A stretch of 64,000 nt of DNA from a virus: the IMG/VR virus record IMGVR_UViG_3300045988_164075. One strand, written 5' to 3'. How positions within the stretch are numbered: the stretch's first letter is position 1; each line of letters opens with the position of its first letter. Shown here piece after piece: positions 3,197 to 32,714 of this stretch. A program made the translations under genes and the position numbers. The notes under the pieces are model-generated. The model was not told the origin of the DNA. It saw nothing but the letters and a program-made list of their open reading frames with translations, and made no database searches.

Positions 3197-3230
3197 AAAT
3201 AGGAGATCTTTTGATCTCCTATTTTTATTT
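3197..3230 (+). terminator. rho-independent terminator-like hairpin
   Basis: aaataggagatc-tttt-gatctcctattt followed by a T-rich run. Confidence 0.6.
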
Positions 3231-3239
3231 TATTAAAAT

Positions 3240-3716
3240 ATGAAAATTATTATTCAATCTTTTGGAGATATTATAACTAATTCTAGTACTGAAACCTTTT
3301 GTATAAGTAATGGTTCAGTTAGCGACCTACAATTACTTATTGATACTATTTTAAAAGTTTATGGTATAAATAATTCATCGATTATTGTTAAAGAAATAGT
3401 TGATTATGATTCATTAAGTGATTTGTCTAGTGGCCAGGTAGAAACTCTAGCTGAAATTGTCTATGAAAATTCTGGTATTGATTCTAATACTTTTCTAGAA
3501 TATGCTAGTTTAGGCAAATGGAATCTACTTGAAAATATGCTCTCAAATGTAGGTAGTAGTCTTTTAGAAATGGCTAAAATATATAATGATACTGTACAGT
3601 ACGGTTTAATTTTTACTCGTTATACAATTGAAACTACTATACCTAATACAGATGCATTAAAACAGCAAATTGAAAATTTGTCGGATTTATTTAGTTTCGG
3701 AGAATATGAATACTAA
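3240..3716 (+). CDS. QS-x2-DIITNSS family paralog 1
   Basis: N-terminus MKIIIQSFGDIITNSSTETFC. TAA stop, no in-frame TGA. Confidence 0.75.
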   Translation: MKIIIQSFGDIITNSSTETFCISNGSVSDLQLLIDTILKVYGINNSSIIVKEIVDYDSLSDLSSGQVETLAEIVYENSGIDSNTFLEYASLGKWNLLENMLSNVGSSLLEMAKIYNDTVQYGLIFTRYTIETTIPNTDALKQQIENLSDLFSFGEYEY

Positions 3717-4218
3717 AATTTTATTTGAATTTAATATTCAATCTATAACTGATATTATTACAAATAGTTCTAGCGAATTATTTGTATTTAAAAATAGAGA
3801 GCTTGAAGATTTAGTATTAATTCTTTCTTTAATTCATCCTTGTTGGAACCTGGAATATAATGAACCAATACAGGTTAATAGAATGCGTGATGATGAATTA
3901 GTTACATATTTAGAATGGGTATATGGTGGGTCAGATTTTGATTATGAAATTAGAAATATTCCTATTACTAAGGAAAATACAAAACGTACAGGAGTTGCTA
4001 AACATTTTGGATTAAAACCAAAATTTGTTTATGAAGATTACGAAAATTGGGATCCTAATATAAATAAACTTAGTCTTAAATATCTGCCTGAAGGTTTAAG
4101 AACAATTCGAGCAATGATCCCTGATACTACCTTTGCAATGTATTCTAAAGACGATAATCCTACATGGGAATATCAAGAAAAATTTGAACGACTTGGTAAA
4201 CGTTATCATCTAGGTTAA
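3706..4218 (+). CDS. QS-x2-DIITNSS family paralog 2
   Basis: ATG at 3706 gives MNTKILFEFNIQSITDIITNSSSELFVF. It overlaps paralog 1 by 11 nt. TAA stop. Confidence 0.7.
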   Translation: MNTKILFEFNIQSITDIITNSSSELFVFKNRELEDLVLILSLIHPCWNLEYNEPIQVNRMRDDELVTYLEWVYGGSDFDYEIRNIPITKENTKRTGVAKHFGLKPKFVYEDYENWDPNINKLSLKYLPEGLRTIRAMIPDTTFAMYSKDDNPTWEYQEKFERLGKRYHLG

Positions 4219-4219
4219 A

Positions 4220-4612
4220 ATGAAAATAATTATTTTAAAAACTCAATCTTTCTCGGATATTATTACTAATAGTAGTAGTGAATTATTTGTAGTTAAAGGA
4301 GATAGATATAGCAGTGCATTTGAAGATTTTTTATATGTAGAAAATATAGGAGACCTTCAGTGGTATCTTGAACGAAAAGAAATACTCTTACCTGAAATAA
4401 GAAAATATCTTAAAAATCCACCTAAAACAATATGTGACGGGTTTGATATAGATGACTATCGAAACGCGCTACGAGAAGCAATTAAAAACAATGATTTAGA
4501 TAAGTATAAAAATTGTTCTTTTGTAGTTTTAGGGGATCATATGGATTATGATACATGGCAATCTATAAAAGATTCTTTATATCCGAATATATATTATGAA
4601 AGTTGGCATTAA
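4220..4612 (+). CDS. QS-x2-DIITNSS family paralog 3
   Basis: MKIIILKTQSFSDIITNSSSELFVV. It starts 1 nt after the previous stop. Confidence 0.75.
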   Translation: MKIIILKTQSFSDIITNSSSELFVVKGDRYSSAFEDFLYVENIGDLQWYLERKEILLPEIRKYLKNPPKTICDGFDIDDYRNALREAIKNNDLDKYKNCSFVVLGDHMDYDTWQSIKDSLYPNIYYESWH

Positions 4613-4907
4613 TATTCAGTCTTATGTTGATGTAATTACTAATTCATCAACTACTGTGTTTTGCTCTATAGAAAGTGATTTTGAGACGATAATTCAAAAT
4701 ATTGAAGATTATTTAAATTCTTTTCTTCCATTTAAAGTTAAATATCATAGATCGTGTATTATTAAAACATATTCAATTACATTTGAGGTGGAATATGGAG
4801 AAAATGAAGAACTTACTGAAAATATATGTGCACTAATTGAACAATTGCTTTCTGAGCATTTTCCGAATGGAGGATATTTTGTAACAAGTGGATATGAATA
4901 TAATTAA
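4596..4907 (+). CDS. QS-x2-DIITNSS family paralog 4
   Basis: MKVGINIQSYVDVITNSSTTVFCS. It overlaps the previous gene by 17 nt. Confidence 0.75.
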   Translation: MKVGINIQSYVDVITNSSTTVFCSIESDFETIIQNIEDYLNSFLPFKVKYHRSCIIKTYSITFEVEYGENEELTENICALIEQLLSEHFPNGGYFVTSGYEYN

Positions 4908-5190
4908 TATACAAAGTATTACTGATATAGTTACAAATAGCAGTACAGAGGTATTTATTCGTGTAAAGGAGACTGCTATTAACACAGTTAAAGAGCTTAT
5001 TAATGATCTTCTTAAAATAAGCGGATCTACACTTCAAGCAGATGATTTATTTACAATTGAAATATTATATGATGATAGTTCAGATTTAATGGTTACTCCA
5101 AAACAAGATACAACAGAGTGTATTGAAGCGGCTGTAATTCTTTCTTCTTTAAGAAGTTTATTTAATTATGAAGTACATGAAGATCGATAA
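4888..5190 (+). CDS. QS-x2-DIITNSS family paralog 5
   Basis: MDMNIINIQSITDIVTNSSTEVFI. It overlaps the previous gene. Confidence 0.75.
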   Translation: MDMNIINIQSITDIVTNSSTEVFIRVKETAINTVKELINDLLKISGSTLQADDLFTIEILYDDSSDLMVTPKQDTTECIEAAVILSSLRSLFNYEVHEDR

Positions 5191-5545
5191 ATTAATTCCA
5201 ATTCAAAGCTATTCAGATATTATAACTAATAGTTCATCTGAATTATTTTGTACTATAACTTCTGAAAAACATCTTAAAGAAATATATCAGATATTAGATA
5301 GTATCGTTGGATATAGGCAAGAACCAGAAATAGATGTTTGTATTAATTACTGTTCTAAATCTAACATCGAAGAATCAGAACTAAAAAGTCAGTTTTATAA
5401 AGAATTGCCAGATAAATGGATTGAAGTAGATTATCCTTATTATAAGAATTCCGTAAAAGAATTTTATATTTCTGGTTTTGAAGGAATTTTAAATAAGAAA
5501 ATAGGTAAAGCAAATTATAAAATTAGATATTATTTAGGAGATTAA
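5168..5545 (+). CDS. QS-x2-DIITNSS family paralog 6
   Basis: MKYMKIDKLIPIQSYSDIITNSSSELFCT. It overlaps the previous gene and ends 3 nt before the radical SAM start. Confidence 0.75.
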   Translation: MKYMKIDKLIPIQSYSDIITNSSSELFCTITSEKHLKEIYQILDSIVGYRQEPEIDVCINYCSKSNIEESELKSQFYKELPDKWIEVDYPYYKNSVKEFYISGFEGILNKKIGKANYKIRYYLGD

Positions 5546-5548
5546 ATT

Positions 5549-5839
5549 ATGAAAGATTGGACAAGTTGGGGAATTAAAAGAAGAGTATTTCCAGATAAAA
5601 ATTATAATGCAATATGGTATAATCTCAAAACACTCCGATTAGGAACAGGACAGGCTAGCGAACTTGATTATCCTGAGTTTTATGATATTGGAATTAATAC
5701 TAAGTGTAATCTTAATTGTCCAATGTGTTATGTTAGTGCTAAAAGTTCGGGAGTAAATTATACCGATATTTGTGAAAAGGCTAAATTCTTTTTTGGACAA
5801 ATGACAGGAAATGAAAGGCCATTTCAAGTGGCAATTGGT
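5549..5839 (+). CDS. radical SAM enzyme, exon 1
   Basis: CNLNCPMCYV is the CxxxCxxC Fe-S/SAM motif. The standard ORF dies at TAA 5843-5845 just after QVAIG. The exon ends in U. Confidence 0.8.
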
Positions 5840-5872
5840 GAATAATAATTTTAGTATTAATTTATAAGTATA

Positions 5873-5904
5873 TTTGGTTGTAGTGTAAATACTGCCTATT
5901 TTTG
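5873..5904 (+). promoter_or_regulatory. Bacteroidota-type promoter (-33 TTTG / -7 TAnnTTTG) inside the intron
   Basis: TTTG at 5873-5876, a 20-nt spacer, then TATTTTTG at 5897-5904, upstream of the endonuclease ATG at 5929. Confidence 0.5.
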
Positions 5905-5928
5905 TATTATAATAAAAATAAATATATT

Positions 5929-7062
5929 ATGATACAATGTGGAATTTACAGGATCCTCAATACTATTAATAATAAGTTTTATATAGGATCGTCAGTAAAC
6001 TTAAGAAAAAGGCTTTATGAACATCGAAGATTACTTCGTTTAGGTAAACATGAGAATTATCATCTACAAAACGCGTTTACTAAATACGGAGAAGAAAATT
6101 TCAAGTTTGAAATTATAGAAGTTTTAAAAGAAGTACCAAAAGATATTAGAGTATTAAGAGATTTAGAAACAGATTATATCCAAAAGTTTAAATCTTATGA
6201 TCAGTCTATTGGATATAATGTAATTAAAGGAGGAATAGGTACAATTAATACTCCTTGTTCAGAAGAAAAACGACAAAAAATTTCAGAAAGTAATAAAGGT
6301 AAGTCTGCGTGAAACAAAAATGTTCCTATGACTGAAGAACAAAAACAATTACTGAAAAAAATTCAAACTAGCGCCCGAGGGAAATCTATTGACGTTTATA
6401 CTTTAGAAGGAGAATTTATTGAAACTATTGGATCGATTAGAGAAGCTAACCGTAAATATTGTTGTGGACGAAATACAATCAAAAATTGCTGCGAAGGTTT
6501 AACATTACCTAAAAAACATATTTTTGTTTATCATGGAGATTCGTTAGATATTATAGCCAAAAATAGAGTTACAATATCAGATGAAGATAAACGATTAAAT
6601 ATTGAGAAAAGTAGAGAATGCCGTGGATATACAGTTGATGTATACAATATGTCTGGAGAATTGGTAGATGTTGTAAAGGGGCTTGAAGCTGCATCAGAAA
6701 AATACGGAATGATTTCGCATAATATTTCTAAACAGATGCGAGAAAAAATAAATGGGAAAGGTCCATATACGTTTAGGCATCATAATGATTTTTCAGTTTA
6801 TGTATATTCTATATATAACAATAATGATTTACTTTATCGGTCTTTTTCTAAAAAATGTATTCGCGAATATTTAAGCAAAAATAAAATTCGTCTTGGACAA
6901 GCATTTAGTAGATTAATTTCTGAATCTTTAACTTCTATTTCAAAATATACTTATCAAATTAAATACGAAATCGCCCATACTGGAAGTAATTCTGGTATTG
7001 AATCGCGCCAATCCGAAGAAATAAATTCGGAGGTCTCTAATGAGGCTAACGGTGAAACCTAA
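5929..7062 (+). CDS. GIY-YIG homing endonuclease (I-TevI-like)
   Basis: GIYRILNTINNKFYIGSSVNLRKRLYEHRR is the GIY-YIG motif. ORFs 5902-6312 and 6328-7062 are one frame joined through TGA 6310-6312. The C-terminal half is repeat-like. Confidence 0.85.
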
Positions 7063-7231
7063 GTCAGAAGTGATATGGTAACACCGTGCTAACTTTAAAG
7101 GTAATATGTTAAAGTAGTGTAACGAGTATGGATGAACCTTCTAACGAAGAATATAAAACTTTGAAGGGCGCGACATCCTTTATAGGATGAAAATGTACTC
7201 TGTGGTAATAGAAATATTACTGTCGCCAACG

Positions 7232-7843
7232 TCAACAGGCGAACCAAGTTTGCACGAAAGCTTCTGTGAATTTCTTGAAACGTTGTTTTACTTAGGAATT
7301 GTTCCAAACTATACAACGAACGGTATTACTATAGCAGAAGACTCTGATCTTAGTACTAAAATACTTGACTATACCTCTCGTTTTGTTGGAGGAGTTGCTG
7401 TTTCTGCTAATGAGTGGTCAGAACATATTGGTAAAGCATGGAGGAGAGCTATATATAAATTAGATACTTTTGGGAATACAAATATTAATATTCACTATAT
7501 TATTAAAGATATTGAAAGTGTTAATAAATTCTTAGATATTTATAAAGAATTTAAATATACAGTATTATACTTTGTGTTACTACCTCTTATGCCATCTGGT
7601 AGATCAAAAGAAAAGTATAGTGAAGATGCATTTGAATATTTACTTCAACAAGATTTAGATTGGGGTAAAATTGCATTTGGTGCACATTTTTATAATTCAT
7701 TACTCAATCAAAATAAAATTAAATGCTATTTATATCCTCCTGAGAGTCTATCTAAAAATCTTCTTTTAGATAGTACTATTAAAGTAACACCATCGTCATT
7801 TAACTTAAATCCTATAAAAGAAATTAAATATGAATACATGTAA
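7232..7843 (+). CDS. radical SAM enzyme, exon 2
   Basis: STGEPSLHESF...VPNYTTNGITI matches the GEP and TNG motifs of the radical SAM core. No Cys-rich SPASM tail. TAA stop. Confidence 0.75.
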   Translation, partial: STGEPSLHESFCEFLETLFYLGIVPNYTTNGITIAEDSDLSTKILDYTSRFVGGVAVSANEWSEHIGKAWRRAIYKLDTFGNTNINIHYIIKDIESVNKFLDIYKEFKYTVLYFVLLPLMPSGRSKEKYSEDAFEYLLQQDLDWGKIAFGAHFYNSLLNQNKIKCYLYPPESLSKNLLLDSTIKVTPSSFNLNPIKEIKYEYM

Positions 7844-8048
7844 AGTTACATTTGAAAATTCAAATGGGCAACAAGTTATTGTAATACTTTCTTTAAATAA
7901 AGAAAAGAACGAACTTGATATGAAACTTGGATTTTCTCCAAAAGTTGATCCTCATACTGATCTCGGATTAGCTGGACAATTTGCAGATATTTTCTGTAAA
8001 GCTCTTGGAGCTAATAATGAATCTACTCCATCTGAAAAACAACAATAA
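7830..8048 (+). CDS. small hypothetical protein, last gene of the operon
   Basis: ATG overlaps the radical SAM 3' end by 14 nt. TAA stop, then a terminator hairpin. Confidence 0.55.
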   Translation: MNTCKVTFENSNGQQVIVILSLNKEKNELDMKLGFSPKVDPHTDLGLAGQFADIFCKALGANNESTPSEKQQ

Positions 8049-8061
8049 TATATTATACTTA

Positions 8062-8096
8062 AGTCCGCGTTAGACCTTTTTAACGCGGACTATTTA
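8062..8096 (+). terminator. terminator-like hairpin
   Basis: agtccgcgtta-gaccttt-ttaacgcggact, an 11-bp perfect stem. The trailing T run is weak. Confidence 0.5.
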
Positions 8097-9405: not shown

Positions 9406-10170
9406 ATGGATATTAGATACGATTTAGTTCCAACTCATGGTATTAAAGAAATTTCTAAAATACTTACTCATAAATTAAGTAAATATAATAAAAATCAATG
9501 GAAGTACGGAATGAGTTGGACAGAAGTATTATCTTCTCTTAAAAAGCATTTAAATGAGTTTGAATTAGGAAAGGATTATGTAGATATTAACGAAAAGTTA
9601 CTACATATTGCAGAAGTTGCAACTAATGCGCTTATTCTTTGTGAATTTTATCATATTTATCCTCAGGGTGATGATAGAATAATTGCACCAGTAGTTAAAC
9701 CATGTGTTGCCTTAGATCTAGATGATTGTGTATTCGATTTCTTAGGATCATATACTAAACGCTTTGGAGTTAATATTTCAGATTATTGGAATGGAGATTA
9801 TAATATGTCAGAAAACTTAAAAACACTTAAGGAAGATAAGGATTTCTGGATTAATATGCCTATTATAAATCGTCCAACATTTGAAGTAGATTATTACGTA
9901 ACTGCTCGATCAATTCCTATTGAATGGACTCAAGAAGCTATTCAACGTAATAATTTACCTAAAGCAAAAATATACACTTTACCTTGGAATGTATCTAAAA
10001 TCGATACATTAAAAGAACTCAAAGTAGATATTATGATTGACGATAAAGCTGAAACATTTAAGGAATGTCTTAGTAATGGGATTTTTTGTTACTTAATGGA
10101 TGCTCCTCATAATAGATACTATGATGTTGGACATCATAGAATATATGATTTAAATCTTACAATAAAATAA
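9406..10170 (+). CDS. two-domain nucleotide hydrolase: N-terminal dNTP-pyrophosphohydrolase-like domain plus HAD 5'(3')-deoxyribonucleotidase-like domain
   Basis: RYDLVP...KYNKNQWKYGMSW...KKHLNEF pattern at the N-terminus. VALDLDDCVFDF is a DxDx(V/T) HAD motif I. Complete ORF with no TGA. Confidence 0.6.
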   Translation: MDIRYDLVPTHGIKEISKILTHKLSKYNKNQWKYGMSWTEVLSSLKKHLNEFELGKDYVDINEKLLHIAEVATNALILCEFYHIYPQGDDRIIAPVVKPCVALDLDDCVFDFLGSYTKRFGVNISDYWNGDYNMSENLKTLKEDKDFWINMPIINRPTFEVDYYVTARSIPIEWTQEAIQRNNLPKAKIYTLPWNVSKIDTLKELKVDIMIDDKAETFKECLSNGIFCYLMDAPHNRYYDVGHHRIYDLNLTIK

Positions 10171-11208
10171 TTGAAAAAGATATCTCTATCTTCTTTTAAC
10201 ATTAAACCTATTATATCTTCAGCATATCACCTCGATATATCAGACGAGGAGTATTTTGGACCTAATTATAGAAATTTCATAAGTAATTCTAAGCTTAAAT
10301 TAATTAATCCTGATCAAGGAGGAACTCCTGAAAGTTATAAAAACGGACTAAAATCTGAAGATACTGCATCATTGCGTTTAGGAAGTGCTATTCATGAATT
10401 GTTTTTACAAAGTGAATCATTTAGATTATGTGAGAACCTACACAAGCCTACAGCAAAACTTGGCGAGGTAATTGACAGAATTCGACATCATAGATCTAAT
10501 AATGAAACAGTTTGAGATTCAATTCATTTAGCTTGTAAGGATGTTAAATACTACGTAAATAGTCTAACTCTAAATAGAATTAGAAGTATTATTAAAAAAG
10601 GTTTAGAATATTATATAAACTCTAAATATATTCAGTCAAACGATGTAGTATTATCTGATAAGGATACTGAAGTTTGTAAAGCATGTTTATCTTCACTATA
10701 CTCGAATAAAAAAGTAGTAGAAGTAGTTAAACCTAATAATGAATTCTATTTAGAAGTAGAAACATATAACGAAGATTCTATATTTTTAGATATTATTGTA
10801 ACCTATAAAGATAAGGAGATCGTATTACGTTTAAAAATGAAAGCAGATAATTGAACATTTAATCATGATACAAAAACAATAGTTTTAAATGATTTAAAAA
10901 CTACTTCTAAACCTTTTCCTTTCTTTATGAAAGAATACGGTAGTTTTGTTCATTATCACTATGCTAGACAAATTGCAATGTATTTATGAATGTTAAAACA
11001 ATATTGTGTTAATACATATAATATTGATTCCAGTTATAAATTTCTATCTAATATTATTGTTGTTGAAACATTTGGAGAGTTTCGATCTCATTGTTATAAT
11101 ATCCCAAATCGGCTTGTAAAACAAGGATTTGAAGAATTAACAAAGTTATTAAAAATGGTTGCATATTACGAGATTTATGGTTACGAGGAAATTGTTGAAT
11201 TTGTATAA
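10171..11208 (+). CDS. PD-(D/E)XK family exonuclease (RecB/YqaJ-like)
   Basis: TTG start. Three in-frame TGA join 10171-10515 to 10990-11208. Motifs GSAIHELF, LKMKADNW and VLNDLKTTS fit a D...D/E-x-K pattern. Confidence 0.55.
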
Positions 11209-11256
11209 AATCCAAATCAAAGAATAAAAATTAAATGTAATTTTTTTATTTTTCTA

Positions 11257-11288
11257 TTTGTATTTTAATATTATCAATAGTATCTTTG
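11257..11288 (+). promoter_or_regulatory. Bacteroidota-type promoter
   Basis: TTTG at 11257-11260, a 20-nt spacer, then TATCTTTG at 11281-11288. Confidence 0.55.
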
Positions 11289-11348
11289 TACCACTAACAA
11301 AAAGAGATAATAAGAATTAATGTTTAATATTTAAAATTTTTTAAAATT

Positions 11349-11876
11349 ATGAAAAAGTTTACAGTAAACGCTTACAGTTTGGAAGAAGCAAAGAATTTAG
11401 CAGAAGAGAATGGTTTGAAAATTGTAAAAAATGTAACTCAATCTTGGAAGAATGCTAAGTGTCCTATTGAAGGAAAGAATTTGGAGGTATTTTGTACAGA
11501 AGCTCTAAGTAAGAATGGTCTTGCTGGTCTTGCTGGCGCTGGCCTCGTTATTGCAGTAGCTCCTGGTTCTAAAGATACTCGGGAACGTCCTTATAAGTTT
11601 GTTAATAATGTTGTTGAAGGAAAACGTAAGACACAACGAGTTATTAAGATTTGTCTGACTCGAAACGATGAAGTAGTAGGAACTGCTTCAAAGAAGTCTG
11701 ATGCAGAGAAGCTTGCTAAAGAGTTGATGGTTAAGTATCGTGAAGATATGTATGCTCAGATCGTTTATGAGGTTAAGGACGGTAAGGATATTGCATTTGA
11801 GTTGAAGTATGCACCTTCGACTTCCGCAAAGAAAGGCACATATGTTGTATTTGGAACAGAAGCTTCTTCTTTCTAA
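11349..11876 (+). CDS. hypothetical protein in its own promoter-terminator cassette
   Basis: Complete ATG-to-TAA ORF of 175 aa, Lys-rich, with no TGA. It is flanked by a consensus promoter and a strong terminator. Confidence 0.8.
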   Translation: MKKFTVNAYSLEEAKNLAEENGLKIVKNVTQSWKNAKCPIEGKNLEVFCTEALSKNGLAGLAGAGLVIAVAPGSKDTRERPYKFVNNVVEGKRKTQRVIKICLTRNDEVVGTASKKSDAEKLAKELMVKYREDMYAQIVYEVKDGKDIAFELKYAPSTSAKKGTYVVFGTEASSF

Positions 11877-11910
11877 CATATAGTTAATAAATAACTGATT
11901 CAATACCTTT

Positions 11911-11949
11911 AAAAGGGAGATATACTAGTTGTATCTCCCTTTTCTTTTT
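11911..11949 (+). terminator. rho-independent terminator
   Basis: aagggagata-tactagttg-tatctccctt followed by ttcttttt. Confidence 0.7.
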
Positions 11950-12519
11950 ATGGATATAAAATTATTTTCTACTATTTTAAAGAAAAATAACTTCAATTAT
12001 ACAATTGATTATCAAATAAAACAGGTGAATGTCGATACAATATTCCAATTTAGAGAGGATTCCTTAAGAGATAGTACTGTTTATTTATACTTAGATTCAT
12101 GAAATAAAGTTTCTCAACGGTTTTGTTGATGAACCTTAAAATATCAATTAGTTTATATAGGCAGTGGATTATTTACTTCTGATAAACCATCTCGACCCTG
12201 ATGTAGTCGCCCAACAGGACATAAAAAAGATTTTATTAAAGCATTTACTGAAAAATATCCTGGAAGATTAATTATATGTACAGTTAATGATAATTTAACA
12301 GAAAATGAATCTAGAGTTTTAGAAGCTTACATGATAAATGCAGCTCTAGATGAATATAATTATCAATTAACTGGTTTCAATGATTATTCGCTAGATTTAA
12401 AATCAAATCAATTAATCAATAAAAAGAGAGGTCTTAAGCAACCAGTATTAAGAGCTATTAACTTAATAAAACCAATGTATTTAAATGGAAATTACCCTTG
12501 AGAAACTACTAGAAGGTAA
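11950..12519 (+). CDS. hypothetical protein, possible GIY-YIG-like fold
   Basis: ATG at 11950. Four or more in-frame TGA (DSWNK, FCWWTL, RPWCS). The LVYIGSG...R...E pattern is a weak match. Confidence 0.45.
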
Positions 12520-13243
12520 AGCTACTATTATTAAAAATAAAGAATATCTTCCGACTTCTGATTATGTTTCTCCGTTTTTGGATCAAATGTCTAAATTTAC
12601 AGACAATTTTACTGTTCAAGTTAAACTTCCTACTCAGATTACAACAACTGCTGAATCGGACGATGTAACATATAATAGAGTATGAATTCAAGCAATATTA
12701 CCAGAAAAATATTGTATTGAAAATCATGATGAAGTATATGGTTTAGTATACGGTTTAGATGTACGTACTCCTGTTTATAAAGTATATCGTGGAATGTTAA
12801 ATCGCGCATGTACAAATTTATGTGTTTTTGATCCATCTTGAATGGAAGTAAACGAAATTAAACCAGGAGAAAATTTTGTATATCATATTACTGCTTTAAT
12901 GGAGAAAGTATCTCATTTTGAAGCAACAATTAAGAAAATGAAAAATACAGTTCTTTCTAGTGATGTAGAAGAACGACACAATAGATTAGGTAATTGAATT
13001 GAAAAATGTGTTTTAGAAGAATATACTGGAACTGGAGGAAAAGTTAAACTTTCCCCATCTACAGTTATAGATGCTTATAATGGAGTTTACTTCGATTCTT
13101 CTTCTAAATATTATGTTGGCAATGAAGATTCAACTGTATTCAATTTCTATAATGCATTTACAGAAATCATTAAGGACGATAAGAAAGATATAATCAATAA
13201 GTTTGAAAAAACATTGCTTATTAACTCTTTATTTGAATTATAA
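12485..13243 (+). CDS. DUF932-like conserved phage protein
   Basis: ORF 12485-12685 extends through 3 TGA to TAA 13241-13243. YRGMLNRACTNLCVF resembles the DUF932 C-x-N-L core. Confidence 0.5.
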
Positions 13244-15451: not shown

Positions 15452-16698
15452 TTGTTAACTTTTCATACTTTGATAAACCGTTTTTTGAGGGAATGTTTGG
15501 AGATTTTTGTTTTCCTGATGGGACTAAACCAGAATGAAGTTCTTTAAGTTGATTACAACAAGAATTTATGACATGATTTAATGCAGAAAGATTAAAAACT
15601 ATAATCACGTTCCCTGTTGAATCGTTTGCGCTTGTTTATAAAGATGACAAATTTATTGACCCAGAATCAGCGAAATTTGTAGCTGAAGAATATGCTAGAG
15701 GTCATTCGTTTTTTACTTATATTAGTGATAGTGTTGATAGTCTCTCATCTTGCTGTCGTTTGAAAAACATGGTTCAAACAAAAGAATTTAATTTTACTAA
15801 TGGCAATATGGGAGTTCAAACTGGAAGTAAAAGTGTTATTACATTAAATCTTAATCGAATTGTACAAGATAAATGTAAAGAACACAATCCTAGTGAAAGA
15901 ACTGTATGAAAAGAAGAAATGAAAGAATATTTGATTAATATTCTTAGTAGAGTTTATAAATATCATACAGCATATAATGCATTGTTACACGATATGTTCG
16001 ATGCGAATCTATTGCCTGTCTATAAAGCAGGATTTATTAATTTGGATAAACAGTATTTAACAATTGGAATTAACGGTTTAAACCAAGCTGCTGAATTTTT
16101 AGGTATTTCTTGTAATGATAACTTAGATTATAAAGAGTTTTGTCAGTTTATATTTAGTATTATTAAAGAACAGAATATTTTACATAAAACTAAAACTGAA
16201 ACATATAATACAGAATGCGTTCCTGCAGAAAGTTTAGCAATTAAAAACTACAATTGAGATAAAGAAGATGGATATTGAGTTCCAACCGACACTAATTTAT
16301 ATGCTAGTTATATTTTTAAACCGAATGATAAAAAACTTAGTGTATTAGAGAGAATAAAACTTCATGGAGCAGAATATATAGGAGAGTATCTAGATGGAGG
16401 TAGTGCAGCACATATAAATTTAGAGGAACATCTTTCAGCTAAACAATATGAAAAACTTTTGAAATATGCTGCTGAAGTAGGTTGTCAATATTTTACCTTT
16501 AATATACCTAACTCTGAATGTGAAGAGTGTGGTTTTATTTCAAGGATAGCGATTACAAAATGTCCAAAATGTGGATCAACAAATATATCTCTATGAGATA
16601 GAATTATTGGATACTTAACTAAAATAAAAAACTGATCTTCTGGAAGACAAATAGAACAAAAGACTAGAGTTTATTCTAAAAATATAGAAAATGGTTAA
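15452..16698 (+). CDS. nrdD: anaerobic ribonucleoside-triphosphate reductase, exon 2
   Basis: C-terminal Zn ribbon CEECG...CPKCG followed by DRIIGYLT, the glycyl-radical RxxGY motif. Several in-frame TGA. TAA at 16696-16698. Confidence 0.9.
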
Positions 16699-17155
16699 AT
16701 ATGTAGATACTCAGGTTGTTTTTAGAGAAATTCCTGATGAGATCGCACTAGCAATTAATATTTCAGGATGTCCAAATCATTGTGAAAATTGTCATAGCTC
16801 TTATCTTGCTAACGATATTGGAACTGAATTATCTTTCAATAATCTTTTTAAATTGATTACAAGTAATTCTGGAATTACATGTGTTGTGTTTATGGGAGGA
16901 GATCAAAATCCAAGTTATATTAATTTGTGTGCAGAAGTTATTAAACAGAGTGATCTTTCTTTGAAGACGGCTTGATATAGTGGAAAACAAGAACTTAATC
17001 CTGAAATCAATATAAACAATTTCAACTATATAAAACTCGGTCCGTATGTTCCTAATAAAGGGCCTTTAGATAATCCAAATACTAATCAAAAAATGTTTTT
17101 AGTTAAAGACAATAATCTAATTGATATTACATATAAATTTTGAGGAAAACAATAA
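16691..17155 (+). CDS. nrdG: anaerobic RNR activating enzyme (radical SAM)
   Basis: CPNHCENCHS is a CxxxCxxC motif. The start overlaps the nrdD stop. Two in-frame TGA. TAA at 17153-17155. Confidence 0.85.
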
Positions 17156-17205: not shown

Positions 17206-17415
17206 ATGTCTGATTTAAAAATAAAACAGTTTACGTTAAGTATTCCAATTAAAGGATGTTTAACTATGACTTTAAATGCAAAAGATGCTCAAGCTGCTGT
17301 AGAATCTTTTTTAGAGCATCAAGATGAATTTTTAGATCATCCTTATTGTGGTAAATTAGAACCTATTTTATCAGCAGCTTATATATATGAAACTAACATC
17401 AAATATGGAGATTAA
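17206..17415 (+). CDS. small hypothetical protein
   Basis: Complete ATG-to-TAA ORF of 69 aa. Confidence 0.5.
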   Translation: MSDLKIKQFTLSIPIKGCLTMTLNAKDAQAAVESFLEHQDEFLDHPYCGKLEPILSAAYIYETNIKYGD

Positions 17416-17893
17416 AATTAAAAAACTTGACAAAAACGCTGTTATACCTAAATATTCAAAATATGGAGATGCTGGAATGGATTTAGTAGCTACTTCTGTT
17501 GATTATAGTAATGAATATTATATTGAATATGGTACTGGATTAGCTATTGAAATCCCTGAAGGTTATGTTGGGTATGTATTTCCACGTTCTAGCAACTCTA
17601 AGTATGATTTACAGCTTTGTAACAGCGTTGGAATAATAGACTCTGGTTATAGAGGAGAAATTAAGCTACGTTATCGAAGAATTATCAATCCTCAGCCAGG
17701 AAGAAACTTTATAGTTAGTGATAACAATATACCTCCAATTCAATGGATAAAAGCTGATTTTGCTTGTTATGAGATTGGAGATAAAGTAGGACAAATTATG
17801 ATTCTTCCCTATCCCAAAGTCGAATTTAAAGAGGTAGAAGAACTTTCTCAAACTGAACGAGGAGAAGGTGGTTTTGGATCAACTGGAAAATAA
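17405..17893 (+). CDS. dut: dUTP diphosphatase
   Basis: GDAGMDL, GIIDSGYRGEI and RGEGGFGSTGK are dUTPase motifs. An alternative upstream ATG lies at 17387. Confidence 0.9.
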   Translation: MEIKIKKLDKNAVIPKYSKYGDAGMDLVATSVDYSNEYYIEYGTGLAIEIPEGYVGYVFPRSSNSKYDLQLCNSVGIIDSGYRGEIKLRYRRIINPQPGRNFIVSDNNIPPIQWIKADFACYEIGDKVGQIMILPYPKVEFKEVEELSQTERGEGGFGSTGK

Positions 17894-21529: not shown

Positions 21530-21707
21530 AAAAGCTTCAGCATTGACTGCAGAATATATGAATAATTATCAATCTCCAGATTGGTTAACTTCAAAAGGCA
21601 TAAATTCTAAATACAAAGATATTTATGATATAGCCTACGAATATTATTATCGACAATTAACCCAAGTAGAAGGAGATATTATATTAGGACAACAAATATG
21701 GATGTAG
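21516..21707 (+). CDS. small hypothetical protein
   Basis: Complete ORF overlapping its neighbours. Confidence 0.45.
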   Translation: MDIIKKASALTAEYMNNYQSPDWLTSKGINSKYKDIYDIAYEYYYRQLTQVEGDIILGQQIWM

Positions 21708-22090
21708 GATTAATATTATCATCATATAATAATACATTTAAGTATTATATACAACAACTATTTAATATTTGGAAGGATAAAGGTAGTATAAGTATATTAG
21801 TTGATCTTGATTTAAAATCAAATGAAACTAAACATTCTATTAATGATGCTATAATGATTATTAAAAACGCTCAGGAATTAGGCGCTAAAATTATAGTAAA
21901 TTCTAAAGAACCTAACAAATATACTTTATATAAAAATTATTTAGAAGTATTTGATAGCTTCTGCATAAGTTCTCCTGCAAAATATGATATTATATTAAGT
22001 AGTAATGCTGGACTAGAGCAAGCTATGTTAATACTTCAAGAAACAGCCAGATATTATAAATTATATAAAAATGAAACTAACAATAAGTAA
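21698..22090 (+). CDS. hypothetical protein
   Basis: Complete ORF of 130 aa. Confidence 0.55.
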   Translation: MDVGLILSSYNNTFKYYIQQLFNIWKDKGSISILVDLDLKSNETKHSINDAIMIIKNAQELGAKIIVNSKEPNKYTLYKNYLEVFDSFCISSPAKYDIILSSNAGLEQAMLILQETARYYKLYKNETNNK

Positions 22091-23330
22091 AAATGCTAAC
22101 ATTAATTATTTAGCTCGAATTGTACAAGTTGATACATTTCATCCGCATCCTAATGCAGATAAACTAAAATTATGTACAGTAGAAGGATATATAATTTCTA
22201 CAGGAATTGATAGCGTTGAAGGAATATATATATATATTTTCCCGTTGAATGTGTAATTAATCCAAAATTTTTAAAATATCATAATTTATATAGGAAGAAG
22301 GAATTGAACCAAAATCCTGAACAATCTGGATTTTTTGAAGAATCGGGAAGAGTTAAATGTATTAAACTCAGGGGGATTGCTTCTGAAGGTTTTATTATGC
22401 CTATAAATTCCTTAATTTCTTATATAAACGATAATGTTAGTTTTGATTATCCTATTGGAACAGAATTTGACACAATTAATGATGAACTATTTGTTTGGAA
22501 ATATGTTATTAAAACTAATATTTCTAATTCAAAATTAGGTGTTAAACAACCTAAAAAGGTACTCAATATAGTTGAAAATCAATTTCGATTTCATGTGGAT
22601 ACTGTTCAATTGCAAAAAGCAATTACTAATATTAATCTAGAAGATATTATTCAAATATCCAATCTTTCCAGAAGAACATTACTACAAATTTTGTTCATCT
22701 CGTAAAGTTATTAAGGATTGCAAATTAAACCCTAATTTAACAAAAGGGTATTATGATTGTGATATATGGAATATTGCGTTTAATGTAATCGAAGAGTATT
22801 TACAAAAAGGATTAACCGTATATGCATAAATCGTTGGATATATGCCTAATGGACAAATGATTCAAAAAGACTACGATTATAAATGTGTATATAATCCTAA
22901 ATCGTTTGATTATCAAAAAATGACCCCTAAACAAATGTATCATGCAAGATTGTTTGATATTATTGTTTATCGAATAACTTATACAAATGTTGATGGAAAA
23001 GTATTTGAATTTTCAACACAACAAGTTAAAGAATTTTGTAAAAAATACAGTTTGCATTCAGTTAAGGAACTCTATTATGGTAGAGCAGAAAACCTCTTTC
23101 CTAATTTAAATATTAATGAACATTGGCATGAGGAATTTTTAACTAATCTAAGAAACATGTATCTTGAACAAAGATCTGTATTATGTAATAATAATGTTCC
23201 TGAAGAAGGTATTGTACTTCGTCGAGAAGTAAATGGTATAGATGTATATAAACTTAAATCAATTAATTTCCTTGAAAAAGAATCTAAAATGTTAGATAGA
23301 GGGGAAATTGATATTGAATCAAATCAATAA
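22071..23330 (+). pseudogene. RNA ligase (OB-fold N-domain plus nucleotidyltransferase) disrupted by frameshifts and an in-frame TAA
   Basis: N-terminus is INYLARIVQVDTFHPHPNADKLKLCTVEGY, then KLRGIASEGFIMP. EGIVLRRE and YKLKSINF match motifs IV and V. The frame changes at (AT)7 22224-22237 and again near 22650-22700. TAA 22827-22829 sits where YAEIVGY is expected. The motif I lysine region is degenerate. Confidence 0.6.
22224..22237 (+). repeat. (AT)7 dinucleotide repeat at a frameshift point
   Basis: atatatatatatat. Loss of one AT unit would fuse ORF 22071-22256 to the frame of ORF 22304-22705. Confidence 0.8.
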
Positions 23331-23334
23331 TTAT

Positions 23335-23859
23335 ATGGAAATAAAGGATAAAGTTGAACTTCCTATAATGGACGATCGTATTTGGAAGTTATTTAATATT
23401 TTAATTAATACTGAGCCTAAGTGCGTATGCTCTAATATTTTAGTATATAATATCAACGATATAGATATTAAATTAATTTGGGAATATGAGAAAGAAGAAG
23501 ATAAATTTAAACCATACACTTTTGTAAACCCAATTAATGAATATTGCAATGATTCTAATTATGTTATTTCTGCTATAACCTGCAGTTATTCTCCAAGCTT
23601 AGTTACAACAGGAAAAATTAAGTTTTTTATTGATACTCCCTATAAAAAATATTGTGTCCGAAAACTTACTTTTGAAGAACAGTATGTTTATCAAAAGAAA
23701 TTATACGGAATCTATTTTAATTATGATATAAACTATCTAAATCAATTTTTGCCTAAATCTGATTTATCTGGAATAGATTTGGATGCACCTGGGTATGAAC
23801 AAGTATTAGGCTATGAACAAAAAATTATTGAAGATTCTGAAAGAGTCAAAAAGGATTAA
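23335..23859 (+). CDS. hypothetical protein
   Basis: ATG at 23335 lies within track ORF 23308-23859. TAA stop. Confidence 0.55.
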   Translation: MEIKDKVELPIMDDRIWKLFNILINTEPKCVCSNILVYNINDIDIKLIWEYEKEEDKFKPYTFVNPINEYCNDSNYVISAITCSYSPSLVTTGKIKFFIDTPYKKYCVRKLTFEEQYVYQKKLYGIYFNYDINYLNQFLPKSDLSGIDLDAPGYEQVLGYEQKIIEDSERVKKD

Positions 23860-26897: not shown

Positions 26898-27134
26898 TTA
26901 GAAATAAAACAGTATATATATTTGATATAGAGGTGTTTCCAAATGTATTTCATTGTTCTGTTAAAAATACTGAAACAAAAGAAATAACGCATTTAGAAAT
27001 TTCTTCTAAACGTAATGATTTGATGAAAATTGTAGATCTCTTTTGGCAAATTAAAACAGAAGACCAGAAGAGTATTTGAAACAAAAATTATACTACTGAT
27101 CTACAATTTAATGTCGATAAAATAATGTGCGGAT
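26891..27134 (+). CDS. family B DNA polymerase, exon 1
   Basis: YIFDIEVFPN is the Exo I DxE motif. One in-frame TGA. The exon ends ...KIMCG plus a U. Confidence 0.85.
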
Positions 27135-27398
27135 AAATTTGAAATTTTCTAAATGTCCCTGTTACTATGTAACAGAAAATCGGGTGAATTGCTGGAAACT
27201 CCCTCTGGGACAATCAGCAGCGAAGCTACAGAAGTACATAAAAGTATGTAGAACGTTCAACGACTAATTCTTGAGTAGTACAAACAATAATAGAAACACG
27301 AGCGCCCGACTTAATCTTTTATAGATTAAGATGATATAGTCTGAACTATATAGTAATATATAGAATTATTAGTTAAATGATAATAAGTTAACAAATTG
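27135..27398 (+). mobile_element. ORF-less group I-type intron (264 nt)
   Basis: Removal gives CGYNILHYDTP. It contains gctggaaactcc...gacaatcagcagc...gttcaacgactaa...gatatagtctgaactatatagtaatatatag and ends in G. Confidence 0.75.
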
Positions 27399-30756: not shown

Positions 30757-31704
30757 ATGAGATTAATTAAACCATCTTTTGAAATAATTGAACAAGAACC
30801 AGGTTTAGAAGGAATATATAAGGCTATTGAACTTGCAGGGAGAAATTGCTACAAATCTGAATCTAATATAAAAGAAGGAAGCGCAAAAGAATTTGTAGAT
30901 CGTATGGTTAAATCTAAACACCTTGCCATGTGTGAACATGGTACTGTATATTTAAAGAATGAAAATACTGATTCTAACGAATTATCTAAATATATAAATA
31001 ACAAATATTCTATCTATAAAAATAAATATATAGGAAAGAAAATTTTTCAGAGTGATATAGATTATTACTCTGAGTACATTACTACAAACTATAGATGTTT
31101 AGTAGAAAATAATTGGCTTGACGATTTACAATATCTCTGTGATCCTACAGAATTTCATGAAAAAAGAATCATGGTACGTTTTATTTGCGATCGTGGCGTA
31201 TCTCATGAGTTTGTACGTAATAGAGGGGCGTTTGGTAATGCTTTTGCCCAGGAAAGTACTCGTTATTGCAATTATTCTAAGAATAAATTTGGTAATGAAC
31301 TTACTTTTATTATTCCCTGTTGGATGGATGTTAATAAATTTCCAAAACATACTATTATTAGTCATGATGACTATGGAGATTTAATTAGTGAATATTATTT
31401 TCATCTTAATGGAAAGGAAACTTCTTATTTTAAACCCTATAAAATTACTCCTGAAGCTAATTTTATAACTGCTTTACAAATATCAGAACAACTTTATTTA
31501 GAATTATTACTTCAAGGCCAAACTCCTCAACAAGCAAGAGCAATATTACCTAATGCCTTAAAGACGGAACTTATAATGACAGGATATATTTCCGATTGGA
31601 AACATTTCTTCAAACTAAGAGATTCCAAAGCAGCTCATCCTCAAGCTTATGAATTAGCTCATCTTTTACACGAAGAGTTTATTAAAAGAGGTTATCTAAA
31701 CTAG
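30757..31704 (+). CDS. thyX: FAD-dependent thymidylate synthase (ThyX/Thy1-like)
   Basis: AIELAGRNCYKSE, HLAMCEHGTVYL and SHEFVRNR...QESTRY fit the ThyX pattern. Complete ORF, TAG stop. Confidence 0.75.
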   Translation: MRLIKPSFEIIEQEPGLEGIYKAIELAGRNCYKSESNIKEGSAKEFVDRMVKSKHLAMCEHGTVYLKNENTDSNELSKYINNKYSIYKNKYIGKKIFQSDIDYYSEYITTNYRCLVENNWLDDLQYLCDPTEFHEKRIMVRFICDRGVSHEFVRNRGAFGNAFAQESTRYCNYSKNKFGNELTFIIPCWMDVNKFPKHTIISHDDYGDLISEYYFHLNGKETSYFKPYKITPEANFITALQISEQLYLELLLQGQTPQQARAILPNALKTELIMTGYISDWKHFFKLRDSKAAHPQAYELAHLLHEEFIKRGYLN

Positions 31705-31712
31705 ATATAAAA

Positions 31713-32714
31713 ATGTTAGAATTACTACTAAAAATAGCGCAAGAAAAAGTAGGTTGCGATTTTGATTATTATAAAGGTTATAATTTACTTAAAGATAGTT
31801 TAGAAGGACTTGATGAACAAACTATTAATAAATTATTAATTGGAGAATATTCGTTAAAATATACTGATAATAACAAAGGAGAAGTTGTAGATGTACCTCA
31901 AACAAATCCCTTGAATATTTTATCTTTAATAGAATGTAAGCTTAATAGTATTGCTGATGCTTATAAAGATATTCAATTTGGACAATTTGTTTACTGGAAG
32001 AAAAGCATTACTATTGATATTACAGATTATATTAAATTAACGGATTCATCTCAGAACTATATTACCACACTATTAGATGATCCGATTATATACGCTTATA
32101 ATAGTCTAAAAGAAAGTTTAGATAAAGATCTATTTACATTTGCTAATATTAGTATAATTATTGAGAAATTATTTCCTAATAATACTGATATATCGGATCG
32201 AGTTTCTAAAGCTTCTAAACAACTACGAGAGATTATTTATAAGCTAAATCATCCAAGTAGTATTGCAACATTATATGATAAAGGAAAACTTGATCGATAT
32301 ATTACTACTCAACTAGAATTAGATAAATTAAGTGAAATACATCCGTCTTTACTTTGTTGTAATGCAGGATATTTTGCACCTGATGGAAAATATTATGGTT
32401 TAAATGGAACTAAAGCAAATTTTTTACATATAAAGATTGCAGATTTACTTCAACAACAAGAGATTATTCCAAAGGATTGTAATACTCCAGATAGGTGGTT
32501 AGAAGAACATGGATGGATTAAACAATCAGGTTCGATGTTGTTATATGGTGGGTATTTTTATAATATATCTATTACTAAAGAACAGATAACTTCTATAGAA
32601 CGAATCCTTAGCCAAAGTTATAATTATATTGAACTTCAACATATTGAAAATTCAATTCCTGTAACAAGATTATCCGAGATAGAGGATATTCAATTACGAA
32701 AACATTTTAGTTAA
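31713..32714 (+). CDS. hypothetical protein (333 aa)
   Basis: Complete ORF with no TGA. Confidence 0.7.
   Translation: MLELLLKIAQEKVGCDFDYYKGYNLLKDSLEGLDEQTINKLLIGEYSLKYTDNNKGEVVDVPQTNPLNILSLIECKLNSIADAYKDIQFGQFVYWKKSITIDITDYIKLTDSSQNYITTLLDDPIIYAYNSLKESLDKDLFTFANISIIIEKLFPNNTDISDRVSKASKQLREIIYKLNHPSSIATLYDKGKLDRYITTQLELDKLSEIHPSLLCCNAGYFAPDGKYYGLNGTKANFLHIKIADLLQQQEIIPKDCNTPDRWLEEHGWIKQSGSMLLYGGYFYNISITKEQITSIERILSQSYNYIELQHIENSIPVTRLSEIEDIQLRKHFS

Follow-up and report, generated by a model that had tools for sequence, protein, structure and literature searches.

A phage radical SAM enzyme encoded with six N-terminally tagged proteins: a candidate tag-directed protein-modification module

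Within positions 3,197–8,096 of a 64,000-nucleotide stretch of viral DNA (IMG/VR record IMGVR_UViG_3300045988_164075; hereafter the window), six small paralogous genes precede a gene for a radical S-adenosylmethionine (SAM) enzyme. The question raised by this locus is what such an enzyme has to do with six proteins that share a short N-terminal block, hereafter the tag. A first-pass annotation of the sequence had proposed that the block is a recognition element for the enzyme, or that all seven proteins act together, and as a whole this interpretation is partly supported by the present analysis. That block and enzyme belong together is upheld by their pairing across phages and cells, with one array that departs from it; that the tagged proteins are modified is what we infer. 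A functional link between enzyme and tag is strongly supported by the sequence comparisons. The reading that we favour, with a probability of about one half, is that the tag proteins are substrates of the enzyme, which would dock the tag and modify the protein that carries it.

Pairing of enzyme and tag in phages and cells

Across 232 unique proteins the tag reads h-x-h-Q-S-x-S-D-(I/V)-I-T-N-S-S-S-E-x-(F/Y) and begins 5–10 residues past the initiating methionine, with its Q, D, T, N, S and S present in 100% of the proteins. The common block described earlier for the six paralogs of the window is indeed there, with Q, S, D, T, N, S, S and F invariant. About 1,400 homologs of the tag proteins and about 1,500 of the enzyme were found; no Pfam domain or functional name occurs among the 120 best tag-protein matches listed.

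Co-occurrence was assessed by running a hidden Markov model of the N-terminal block on translated loci. Starting from the enzyme, all 80 of 80 IMG/VR loci (enzymes 50–98% identical) carry two to seven adjacent tag genes on the same strand. Starting from the tag, the enzyme is present in 67 of 69 IMG/VR loci, the other two being cut by contig ends, and in 41 of 41 metagenome loci that come from many environments and extend at least 1.5 kb to each side, again on the same strand and with a median gap of 90 nucleotides. Tag genes lie upstream in 38 of the metagenome loci and downstream in 20; both gene orders occur. The module is minimal in 20 of the 41, with the enzyme and one protein ending in RYHLG. 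Close full-length homologs of the enzyme were also found in contigs of metagenome-assembled genomes (MAGs) binned with Clostridia, Mycoplasmatota, Cloacimonadota, Bacteroidales, Methanobacteriaceae and Woesebacteria, all of them beside tag genes. The first-pass annotation had put forward co-occurrence as one check on its proposal, and the pairing came through it strongly, with a single exception, an array in a Lak-type megaphage that is weighed below.

In two jumbo-phage contexts (399-kb and 96-kb contigs) one tag protein lies on each side of the enzyme, and two small open reading frames (ORFs) and another gene are interleaved. The two ORFs (65 and 76–79 residues) are located between the upstream tag protein and the enzyme, overlapping the start of the latter, at 9581–10014 in locus L163 and 9590–10014 in locus L165. 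A precomputed PF23835 (DUF7205) label on them was not reproduced in a Pfam search, and no literature on it was found. In both loci the downstream tag protein is followed by a nucleoside 2-deoxyribosyltransferase.

A genome scan revealed about 60 distant relatives of the enzyme in bacterial chromosomes and a few archaeal MAGs, with about 30–35% identity over residues 42–221 and, in some, from residue 5. These cellular enzymes are about 345 residues long and contain a SPASM domain (TIGR04085, 32.7 bits against a cutoff of 27). Directly upstream in 56 of 62 loci is a protein of ~132 residues that starts with MK(I/V)K(L/F/M)DFVSNSSSTSF(V/I)YI and ends in …INAY(N/D)NYW. When cellular and phage tag proteins are compared with hhalign, the alignment covers the tag only (17 columns, probability 86%, E = 4.8e-6). 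It is the short N-terminal tag, and not the body behind it, that travels with this clade of radical SAM enzymes in viruses and cells.

In Agrobacterium tumefaciens ATCC 4720 (L276, 2463–6915) and in 44 other chromosomal loci, the cellular pair forms part of a four-gene cassette on one strand, consisting of a SMEK_N-nuclease/NACHT (STAND) NTPase, an ORF of ~129 residues, the ~132-residue tag protein and the radical SAM/SPASM enzyme. The first gene's product, in which a SMEK_N nuclease domain is fused to the NTPase, matches Avs2 defence models; the chromosomal contexts are unrelated, with nothing conserved around the four genes. The cassette was not found as a system in PADLOC 2.0, and no description of it was found in the literature searched on SMEK/STAND with radical SAM enzymes; it looks like an undescribed defence-island module. 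It resembles Avs-type STAND defence in that the tag protein and the radical SAM/SPASM enzyme are joined to a SMEK nuclease and a NACHT NTPase in scattered contexts, whereas described Avs systems lack a radical SAM enzyme and a tag protein, and the phage module lacks a STAND NTPase. Ophion is a different radical SAM defence system.

Operon layout, tag proteins and codon usage

The module of the window consists of the following features.

3197–3224, + strand: terminator-like hairpin, upstream bound; 12-bp stem, 4-nucleotide loop, T-rich tail
3240–3716, + strand: tag protein 1, 158 residues; N-terminal block IQSFGDIITNSSTETF; tail …GEYEY
3706–4218, + strand: tag protein 2, 170 residues; RYHLG-tail subfamily
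4220–4612, + strand: tag protein 3, 130 residues; tail …YYESWH
4596–4907, + strand: tag protein 4, 103 residues; tail …GYEYN
4894–5190, + strand: tag protein 5, 98 residues; tail …NYEVHEDR
5168–5545, + strand: tag protein 6, 125 residues; tail …RYYLGD
5549–5839, + strand: radical SAM enzyme, exon 1, residues 1–97; N-terminal β element and CNLNCPMC; ends …FQVAIG
5840–7231, + strand: mobile intron, probably divergent group I; 1,392 nucleotides, after U5839, last base G7231
5929–7062, + strand: intron-encoded GIY-YIG + NUMOD3 homing endonuclease, 377 residues
7232–7843, + strand: radical SAM enzyme, exon 2, residues 98–300; STGEP, YTTNG, GGVAVS and small C-terminal β domain
7830–8048, + strand: ORF of 72 residues, overlapping the stop of the enzyme gene by 14 nucleotides
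8062–8091, + strand: terminator-like hairpin, downstream bound; 13-bp stem with six G–C pairs; closes the module

The unit had been described as bounded by two terminator hairpins, and both were recovered (3197–3224 and 8062–8091, with stems of 12 and 13 bp). The first closes the primase and PDDEXK genes 5′ of the module, which begins after it. They are two of just three plus-strand terminator-like hairpins in 12 kb, and over both strands six such sites were counted against 2.2 ± 1.4 for shuffled sequences. Between the hairpins the genes overlap or abut: successive tag genes are joined by an 11-nucleotide overlap (3706/3716), a 1-nucleotide gap (4218/4220) and overlaps of 17 (4596/4612), 14 (4894/4907) and 23 nucleotides (5168/5190), a 3-nucleotide gap (5545/5549) precedes the enzyme gene, and the last ORF starts within that gene (7830/7843). 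All of these junctions are as first annotated. The 72-residue ORF has neither the tag nor a family match and is kept in 21 of the 80 loci, closer relatives only.

The tag proteins are acidic, with a median isoelectric point of 4.5, and range from 49 to 253 residues among the 232 unique proteins and from 98 to 170 in the window. Behind the tag, the bodies fall into many unrelated-looking recurring subfamilies, each with its own conserved motifs and with a C-terminal tail conserved to the last residue (…RYHLG, …(E/D)(S/Y/W)(R/W)H, …YN or …EYEY). The RYHLG-tail subfamily, to which tag protein 2 belongs, is the most widespread and is the sole partner in the minimal modules; the idea that every array contains such a protein was rejected, as many arrays are without one. 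Tail classes are common to the window and the Lak megaphage array, which makes the paralog array an old gene set. It is not a local novelty but consists of old subfamilies common to several phage families.

Searches of the paralogs against Pfam, PHROGs, NCBIfam and PADLOC gave no significant family, and a paralog profile gave only noise against PDB sequences (E > 0.2). A tblastn search of 50,697 GenBank phage records with the enzyme, tag protein 2 and a Lak paralog gave no match. Fusion of the tag to known domains was considered and rejected: the top matches of ~400 residues are two adjacent paralogs fused in frame. The AlphaFold model of tag protein 2 (pLDDT 86, pTM 0.78) is of low confidence only in residues 1–20, with pLDDT below 50 in the heart of the tag (residues 13–19), and an α/β domain follows from Glu24. 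On this model the tag is predicted to be a flexible N-terminal extension. Foldseek comparison of the model with PDB and BFVD found no neighbour (E > 0.3, TM < 0.3).

The window has a G+C content of 28% and uses TGA as a sense codon. Reading through TGA lifts the coding capacity in ORFs of at least 100 residues from 46 to 75 kb and gives ORFs of up to 2,692 residues (2,682 from the first ATG); TGA is presumably decoded as Trp across the window, including the replication genes (primase, NrdD/NrdG, helicase and polymerase fragments). Tag protein 2 is 100% identical to a protein of OLWB01000021.1 (162 kb), a Zeta-group crAss-like cMAG (Yutin et al., 2021; PMC7886860). Genomes of the Zeta group measure 145–192 kb, have reassigned stop codons and are densely populated by introns and inteins (Yutin et al., 2021; PMC7886860). 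Traits of this group, for which the name Echekviridae has been proposed and which recodes TGA or TAG and has giant virion and RNA polymerase proteins, are found in the window in the form of TGA recoding, ORFs of 1,380–2,682 residues and an Rfam group I intron at 27109–27363. The window is from a Zeta-group crAss-like phage in which TGA is recoded, presumably to Trp.

Against this background the six paralogs, both exons of the enzyme and the 72-residue ORF together contain 15 TGG and no TGA codons, compared with 151 TGA and 45 TGG in the remainder of the window (Fisher p = 1.6e-9). To call the unit TGA-free has a meaning only in a genome like this one, where TGA encodes an amino acid. It holds for these genes and fails for the endonuclease ORF, where an in-frame TGA (6310–6312), read as Trp, gives …NKGKSAWNKN… and where the 377-residue product matches homing-endonuclease PHROGs across the TGA position. 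In 24 TGA-recoded relatives (enzymes 60–98% identical) the module has 0–2 TGA against 11–18 TGG, and the flanks use 30–70% TGA. A stop-codon coding-capacity classification of all 80 loci was crude, reliable only for L001–L023 and L030 and otherwise noise in AT-rich DNA. Avoidance that is kept over 60–98% identity argues for selection and against recent import; recent horizontal import was rejected as its cause, since relatives down to 60% identity keep it.

From this codon usage we infer that the module must be readable by unmodified host machinery, before a suppressor tRNA accumulates. No tRNA gene was found in the 64,000 nucleotides of the window, and any suppressor tRNA is therefore encoded elsewhere in the genome. 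Further TGA-free genes of the window lie at 9406–10170, 17387–17893, 21698–23859 and 30757–32714; a dGTP_diPhyd_N/HAD-like gene has 0 TGA and 6 TGG, as do two genes at 30.7–32.7 kb (0/6). Like the module, these genes may be among those expressed before recoding sets in. The first-pass description of the locus is partly confirmed: its architecture was right, and the TGA recoding and the intron discussed below had been missed.

The enzyme and the role of the tag

The enzyme belongs to the radical SAM superfamily. The cluster motif C53-N-L-N-C57-P-M-C60 is invariant across 66 homologs, and G97-S-T-G-E101-P102 and T125-T-N127-G128 are conserved. Among the cysteines only Cys53, Cys57 and Cys60 are invariant (Cys75 is present in about 90%), from which it follows that the phage enzyme lacks a SPASM or twitch cluster. 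The alignment thus agrees with the first description, which had given CNLNCPMC, GEP and YTTNG as present and a Cys-rich SPASM tail as absent. Pfam PF04055 scores 21.4 bits on the enzyme of the window, below its threshold of 29.5, and is a precomputed match on most homologs. The AlphaFold model (pLDDT 94, pTM 0.91) shows an alternation of strands and helices, with a conserved three-stranded β element (residues 10–31) before the barrel and a small β domain at the C-terminus. In Foldseek, numerous radical SAM structures align to it with probability 1.00; closest in the PDB are SuiB in complex with its precursor peptide (E = 2.4e-10, TM 0.62), SkfB (TM 0.64) and EpeE, followed by Tes/GDGT-MAS, NifB, DesII, BlsE, RlmN, MoaA and PqqE.

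Profile searches place the enzyme in no curated family. The 21 NCBIfam matches are all far under their cutoffs, the SPASM model TIGR04085 does not match, and neither Pfam nor NCBIfam gives a match to a RiPP recognition element (RRE; RiPP, peptide made by ribosomes and modified after translation) or PqqD; a possible RRE counterpart is the N-terminal β element (residues 10–31). An activase of the NrdG/PflA type was rejected (NrdG-type model TIGR02495, 16 bits against a cutoff of 131; no Gly in the tag), in keeping with the earlier statement that NrdG is encoded separately: an NrdG-like gene lies at 16691–17155, beside an NrdD-like ORF that ends in RIIGY. Viperin was rejected as well (PADLOC pVip, 25.7 bits over residues 49–134 only; NCBIfam viperin, 19.9 bits against 180), as were MoaA (13.9 bits against 231) and QueE, which is absent from the NCBIfam matches and had already been thought not obvious. 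A confident assignment to a nucleotide or cofactor pathway, named at the outset as evidence that would count against protein modification, was not found, all profile scores being under cutoffs.

The phage enzyme shares a radical SAM core with CX3CX2C with SuiB of streptide, SkfB of sporulation killing factor, EpeE of epipeptide, PqqE and MftC. SPASM peptide maturases are likewise encoded as one enzyme beside one or several substrates with a common recognition sequence, and a further link is that the cellular relatives of the phage enzyme carry a genuine SPASM domain. Unlike these maturases, the phage enzyme lacks cysteines for auxiliary clusters, shows no detectable RRE and scores below every curated cutoff; its partners are folded acidic proteins of 100–250 residues in which the conserved element is a polar tag at the extreme N-terminus, and the module is phage-encoded, with no protease and no transporter. 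A different precedent is given by PflA/NrdG and anSME, small radical SAM enzymes that read a short near-invariant motif in a flexible stretch of otherwise diverse proteins; in the case of anSME, the hydrogen is taken from a Ser or Cys side chain. Glycyl-radical activating enzymes resemble the phage enzyme in having no auxiliary clusters, and the tag differs from the substrates of PflA/NrdG and anSME in having no RVxG-type Gly and no C/S-x-P-x-R motif. Literature searches for the module and for phage RiPP-like radical SAM systems gave no match. Its unusual features in a setting of radical SAM enzymes and tagged substrates are phage encoding, the absence of an auxiliary cluster, folded partners and a universal N-terminal tag that is also found in a defence-like cellular cassette.

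We favour tag proteins as substrates because the structural neighbours are maturase-like, the ancestry includes SPASM, one enzyme is associated with many partners and the tag is flexible, invariant and rich in Ser, Thr and Asn. The module would be an early-expressed phage operon for a tag-directed radical SAM protein system. Its enzyme, made once the mRNA has been spliced, would be a stand-alone, SPASM-less offshoot of the SPASM/twitch peptide-maturase branch that recognizes the invariant flexible tag on each of the six acidic proteins encoded upstream, with the core D-h-h-[S/T]-N-S-S-[S/T]-x-x-[F/Y] and, in phages, h-x-h-Q-S-x-S-D-I-I-T-N-S-S-S-E-x-F. After binding of the tag, the 5′-deoxyadenosyl radical would abstract a hydrogen from the tagged protein, the likeliest target being the Ser/Thr/Asn-rich tag itself and the alternative the aromatic tail, short and conserved, at the C-terminus. 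Once modified, the proteins would serve as diversified early effectors in phage–host conflict. The most secure part of this scheme is that the tag engages the enzyme by physical docking; we are less sure that the tagged protein is modified, and ideas on where and by what chemistry, and on an effector role, are speculative. The early effector role is suggested by the timing of expression, the acidity and diversification of the proteins and the cellular counterpart with its link to Avs; a part in phage–host conflict is a guess. More tentative still, and in our view doubtful, is an extension in which an unrecognized tag-directed radical SAM protein modification serves both sides of the arms race, the phage maturing its D-I-I-T-N-S-S-S-E effectors within minutes of infection and before the code switch and bacteria coupling the homologous pair to an Avs-like STAND nuclease in an immune cassette, with one system as mimic, decoy or antagonist of the other.

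Several observations weigh against the tag proteins as substrates. The partners are folded proteins of 100–250 residues and not peptides, in a fold without a known neighbour, and only one model, built on a 38-sequence alignment, gives the tag its low pLDDT. The enzyme has no detectable RRE/PqqD and no SPASM or twitch cysteines, and most of its peptide-modifying relatives use both; the sugar- and nucleotide-acting DesII, BlsE and MoaA are also significant structural neighbours, with E of about 1e-7 to 1e-6. The module lies inside a replication and nucleotide-metabolism block, preceded by genes for a primase and a PDDEXK nuclease and followed by one for a dATP/dGTP-diphosphohydrolase-like enzyme, and the jumbo-phage versions adjoin the nucleoside 2-deoxyribosyltransferase. 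In the Lak-type megaphage L081 (659,950 bp), six tag proteins (10001–12886), with tails RYHLG, SDYRH, SDWRH, …YSC and …FYN, have no radical SAM enzyme within 10 kb on either side, the only exception to the pairing found. Finally, an invariant polar motif could fit equally well a composite active site to which the tag protein contributes as a subunit.

This last point leads to the main rival, which we consider rather unlikely: the tag proteins would be interchangeable subunits of a holoenzyme, or adaptors, in which the tag folds onto the enzyme and supplies active-site or substrate-binding residues and the bodies select third-party targets such as small molecules, nucleotides, DNA or host proteins. 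Eight polar residues that are 100% invariant across distant lineages are more typical of catalysis or ligand binding than of a leader peptide, the bodies form discrete conserved subfamilies with conserved termini, like specificity modules, and the phage enzyme has lost the SPASM domain of its cellular relatives, a loss for which a partner might compensate in trans. The surrounding nucleotide-metabolism genes, with the deoxyribosyltransferase of the jumbo phages, point the same way, and the pairing statistics fit adaptors as well as substrates. What speaks for substrates is that the nearest solved structures act on a peptide encoded beside them and that many partners to one enzyme are the classic pattern of precursors and maturase; in addition, no ligand- or nucleic-acid-binding domain is recognizable in any subfamily, and the acidity of the tag proteins argues against DNA binding.

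The tails raise a second alternative, in which the tag is a leader, the C-terminal tails (…RYHLG, …ESWH, …EYEY and …YN) serve as core peptides and the middle forms a long leader like those of NHLP/Nif11; the enzyme would cross-link or otherwise modify the aromatic tail, and a released peptide would be the active product. Several precursors with a conserved N-terminus do stand beside one maturase-like enzyme whose structural neighbours are SuiB, SkfB, EpeE and PqqE, and the tails are conserved to the end and rich in Tyr, Trp and His, as in substrates of the cyclophane, PQQ and mycofactocin types. Yet neither a protease nor an exporter is encoded in the module, a SPASM domain is absent and an RRE is not detectable; the middle regions are modelled with confidence as folded domains, each specific to its subfamily, without a common leader, and many members lack the tails or have other ones. 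It would also be odd to find a secreted peptide in a lytic phage operon that is switched on as infection begins, and we regard this alternative as improbable.

We give as little credence to independent functions, with the tag as an autonomous motif, for instance for binding a host target or as a packaging or targeting signal like the capsid-targeting sequence of T4 internal proteins, the enzyme engaged in unrelated nucleotide- or DNA-modification chemistry, and adjacency due to co-regulation only. The Lak array and the nucleotide-metabolism surroundings would fit, and phage radical SAM enzymes are known from DNA hypermodification pathways (PMC8989533). Co-regulation alone would not sustain a pairing that persists over unrelated contexts, both gene orders, several phage families and bacterial chromosomes, and the avoidance of TGA points to early expression, not to virion packaging.

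The interrupted enzyme gene and the setting of the module

The enzyme had been annotated as a single ORF (5549–7843), which it is not. The frame that opens at 5549 stops at 5845 after …FQVAIGE, and a second frame, 7187–7843, carries …STGEPSLHE…YTTNG…. Uninterrupted homologs are plentiful, among them one of 300 residues with 98% identity (P0001) that reads FQVAIG-STGEPSLHESF; with AIG/STGEP continuous in these homologs, the insert is exactly 5840–7231, between exons 5549–5839 and 7232–7843. The ORF within it combines a GIY-YIG catalytic domain with a NUMOD3 motif, and a structured core occupies about 6971–7231. Several lineages are interrupted at the same site (profile positions 99–101, AIG/S-x-GEP), by an insert of about 1.39 kb with endonuclease (the window, L019/L089), of 314 nucleotides without an ORF (L022/L086 and the divergent L091) or of 1.23 kb with a decayed ORF (L096/L098). 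A 25-nucleotide word of the core occurs in nine viral contigs, each with an insert at this site of a radical SAM homolog; in all, the site is occupied, with or without the ORF, in at least nine lineages.

The ORF-less copy folds much better than shuffled sequences (z = −4.9), and an alignment of six distinct cores shows compensatory changes at 28 of 68 predicted pairs. No Rfam family matches the insert at gathering threshold, and below it group I matches appear only on the ORF-less copies; the RF00028 covariance model scores 18.4 bits on the L086 copy and, over the full model length, 25.4 bits (E = 1.3e-4) on the L091 copy, against a gathering score of 50. Its alignment places P4–P6, J6/7–P7 (AACGAGUA), J8/7–P7′ (GAUGAAAAUGUACUCU) and a GAAA-capped P9 plausibly. 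The features expected of group I introns are present: an in-frame break in a gene that is conserved, a U just ahead of the 5′ splice site, a terminal G, a structured core and an optional endonuclease ORF. We conclude that the insert is a predicted mobile self-splicing intron, most probably a divergent member of group I. It is like introns of the T4 td/I-TevI type in its position within a conserved catalytic motif, the U before and the G at its end, and the optional GIY-YIG + NUMOD3 ORF; it is unlike usual group I introns in scoring below the Rfam gathering threshold, in a U(−1) that does not face G in the apparent P1 and in an unusually long stretch that separates the proposed P7 and P3′.

In L091 (IMGVR_UViG_3300027891_000012, 12940–13030) the enzyme reads …VYNIGVQDNHNYYVGNCLVHN/CYTDA…, with what reads as an intein C-terminal block (…LVHN/C) immediately ahead of Cys number three in CX3CX2C; the gene also has the 314-nucleotide intron at AIG/SQGEP. 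That homing elements have colonized these motifs repeatedly shows them to be targets under strong conservation. Three other forms are probable assembly chimeras or deletion variants (P0051, a 2,146-nucleotide Logan contig; P0004; L168), with tag protein 1 fused to the enzyme at …TRYT/TNG…, the enzyme joined to a flavodoxin-like C-terminus, and a third tag gene running into the C-terminal part of the enzyme. Elsewhere in the window, the Rfam group I intron at 27109–27363 (98 bits) lies within a fragmented DNA-polymerase region at about 25.9–30.2 kb; PolB of OLWB01000021 is split by introns into four fragments (Yutin et al., 2021; PMC7886860). A 245-residue ORF (41899–42636, − strand; …IGDGHI…) between giant minus-strand genes resembles homing endonucleases of the LAGLIDADG type, a hint that the structural and RNA polymerase block contains more introns.

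The genome position of the module may be an accessory hot spot. In the Zeta phage Lera (PV725988) the slot after the primase and a ‘Holliday junction resolvase’ is taken by genes for an ADP-ribosylglycohydrolase and a hypothetical protein, and the supplementary gene table shows no radical SAM enzyme at that place (PMC12386605). Tag proteins without a radical SAM enzyme are encoded on two short contigs (L083 and L084) that are relatives of a 380-kb NCBI contig, and in the gene table of the 380-kb contig NADAR, PARG and NUDIX genes lie near tag proteins.

Zeta-group phages account for 13–18% of crAss-like reads (Yutin et al., 2021; PMC7886860). They are among the most abundant human gut viruses, and most of their early genes are without an assigned function. 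The module spans crAss-like, jumbo and environmental phages, its tag proteins occur also in a Lak megaphage, and its cellular counterpart comes with a STAND NTPase of antiviral type. That the recoded stop is consistently avoided also offers a simple genomic marker for genes that need to be translated before the code switch. If the tag is the site at which the radical SAM enzyme recognizes or modifies its partners, the module would represent an enzyme–substrate logic new to the superfamily, in which an enzyme without auxiliary cluster acts on folded proteins that bear an N-terminal tag; besides, it would provide a handle on the early biology of crAss-like phages, and the tag would be a sequence signature for effector discovery in uncultivated phages.

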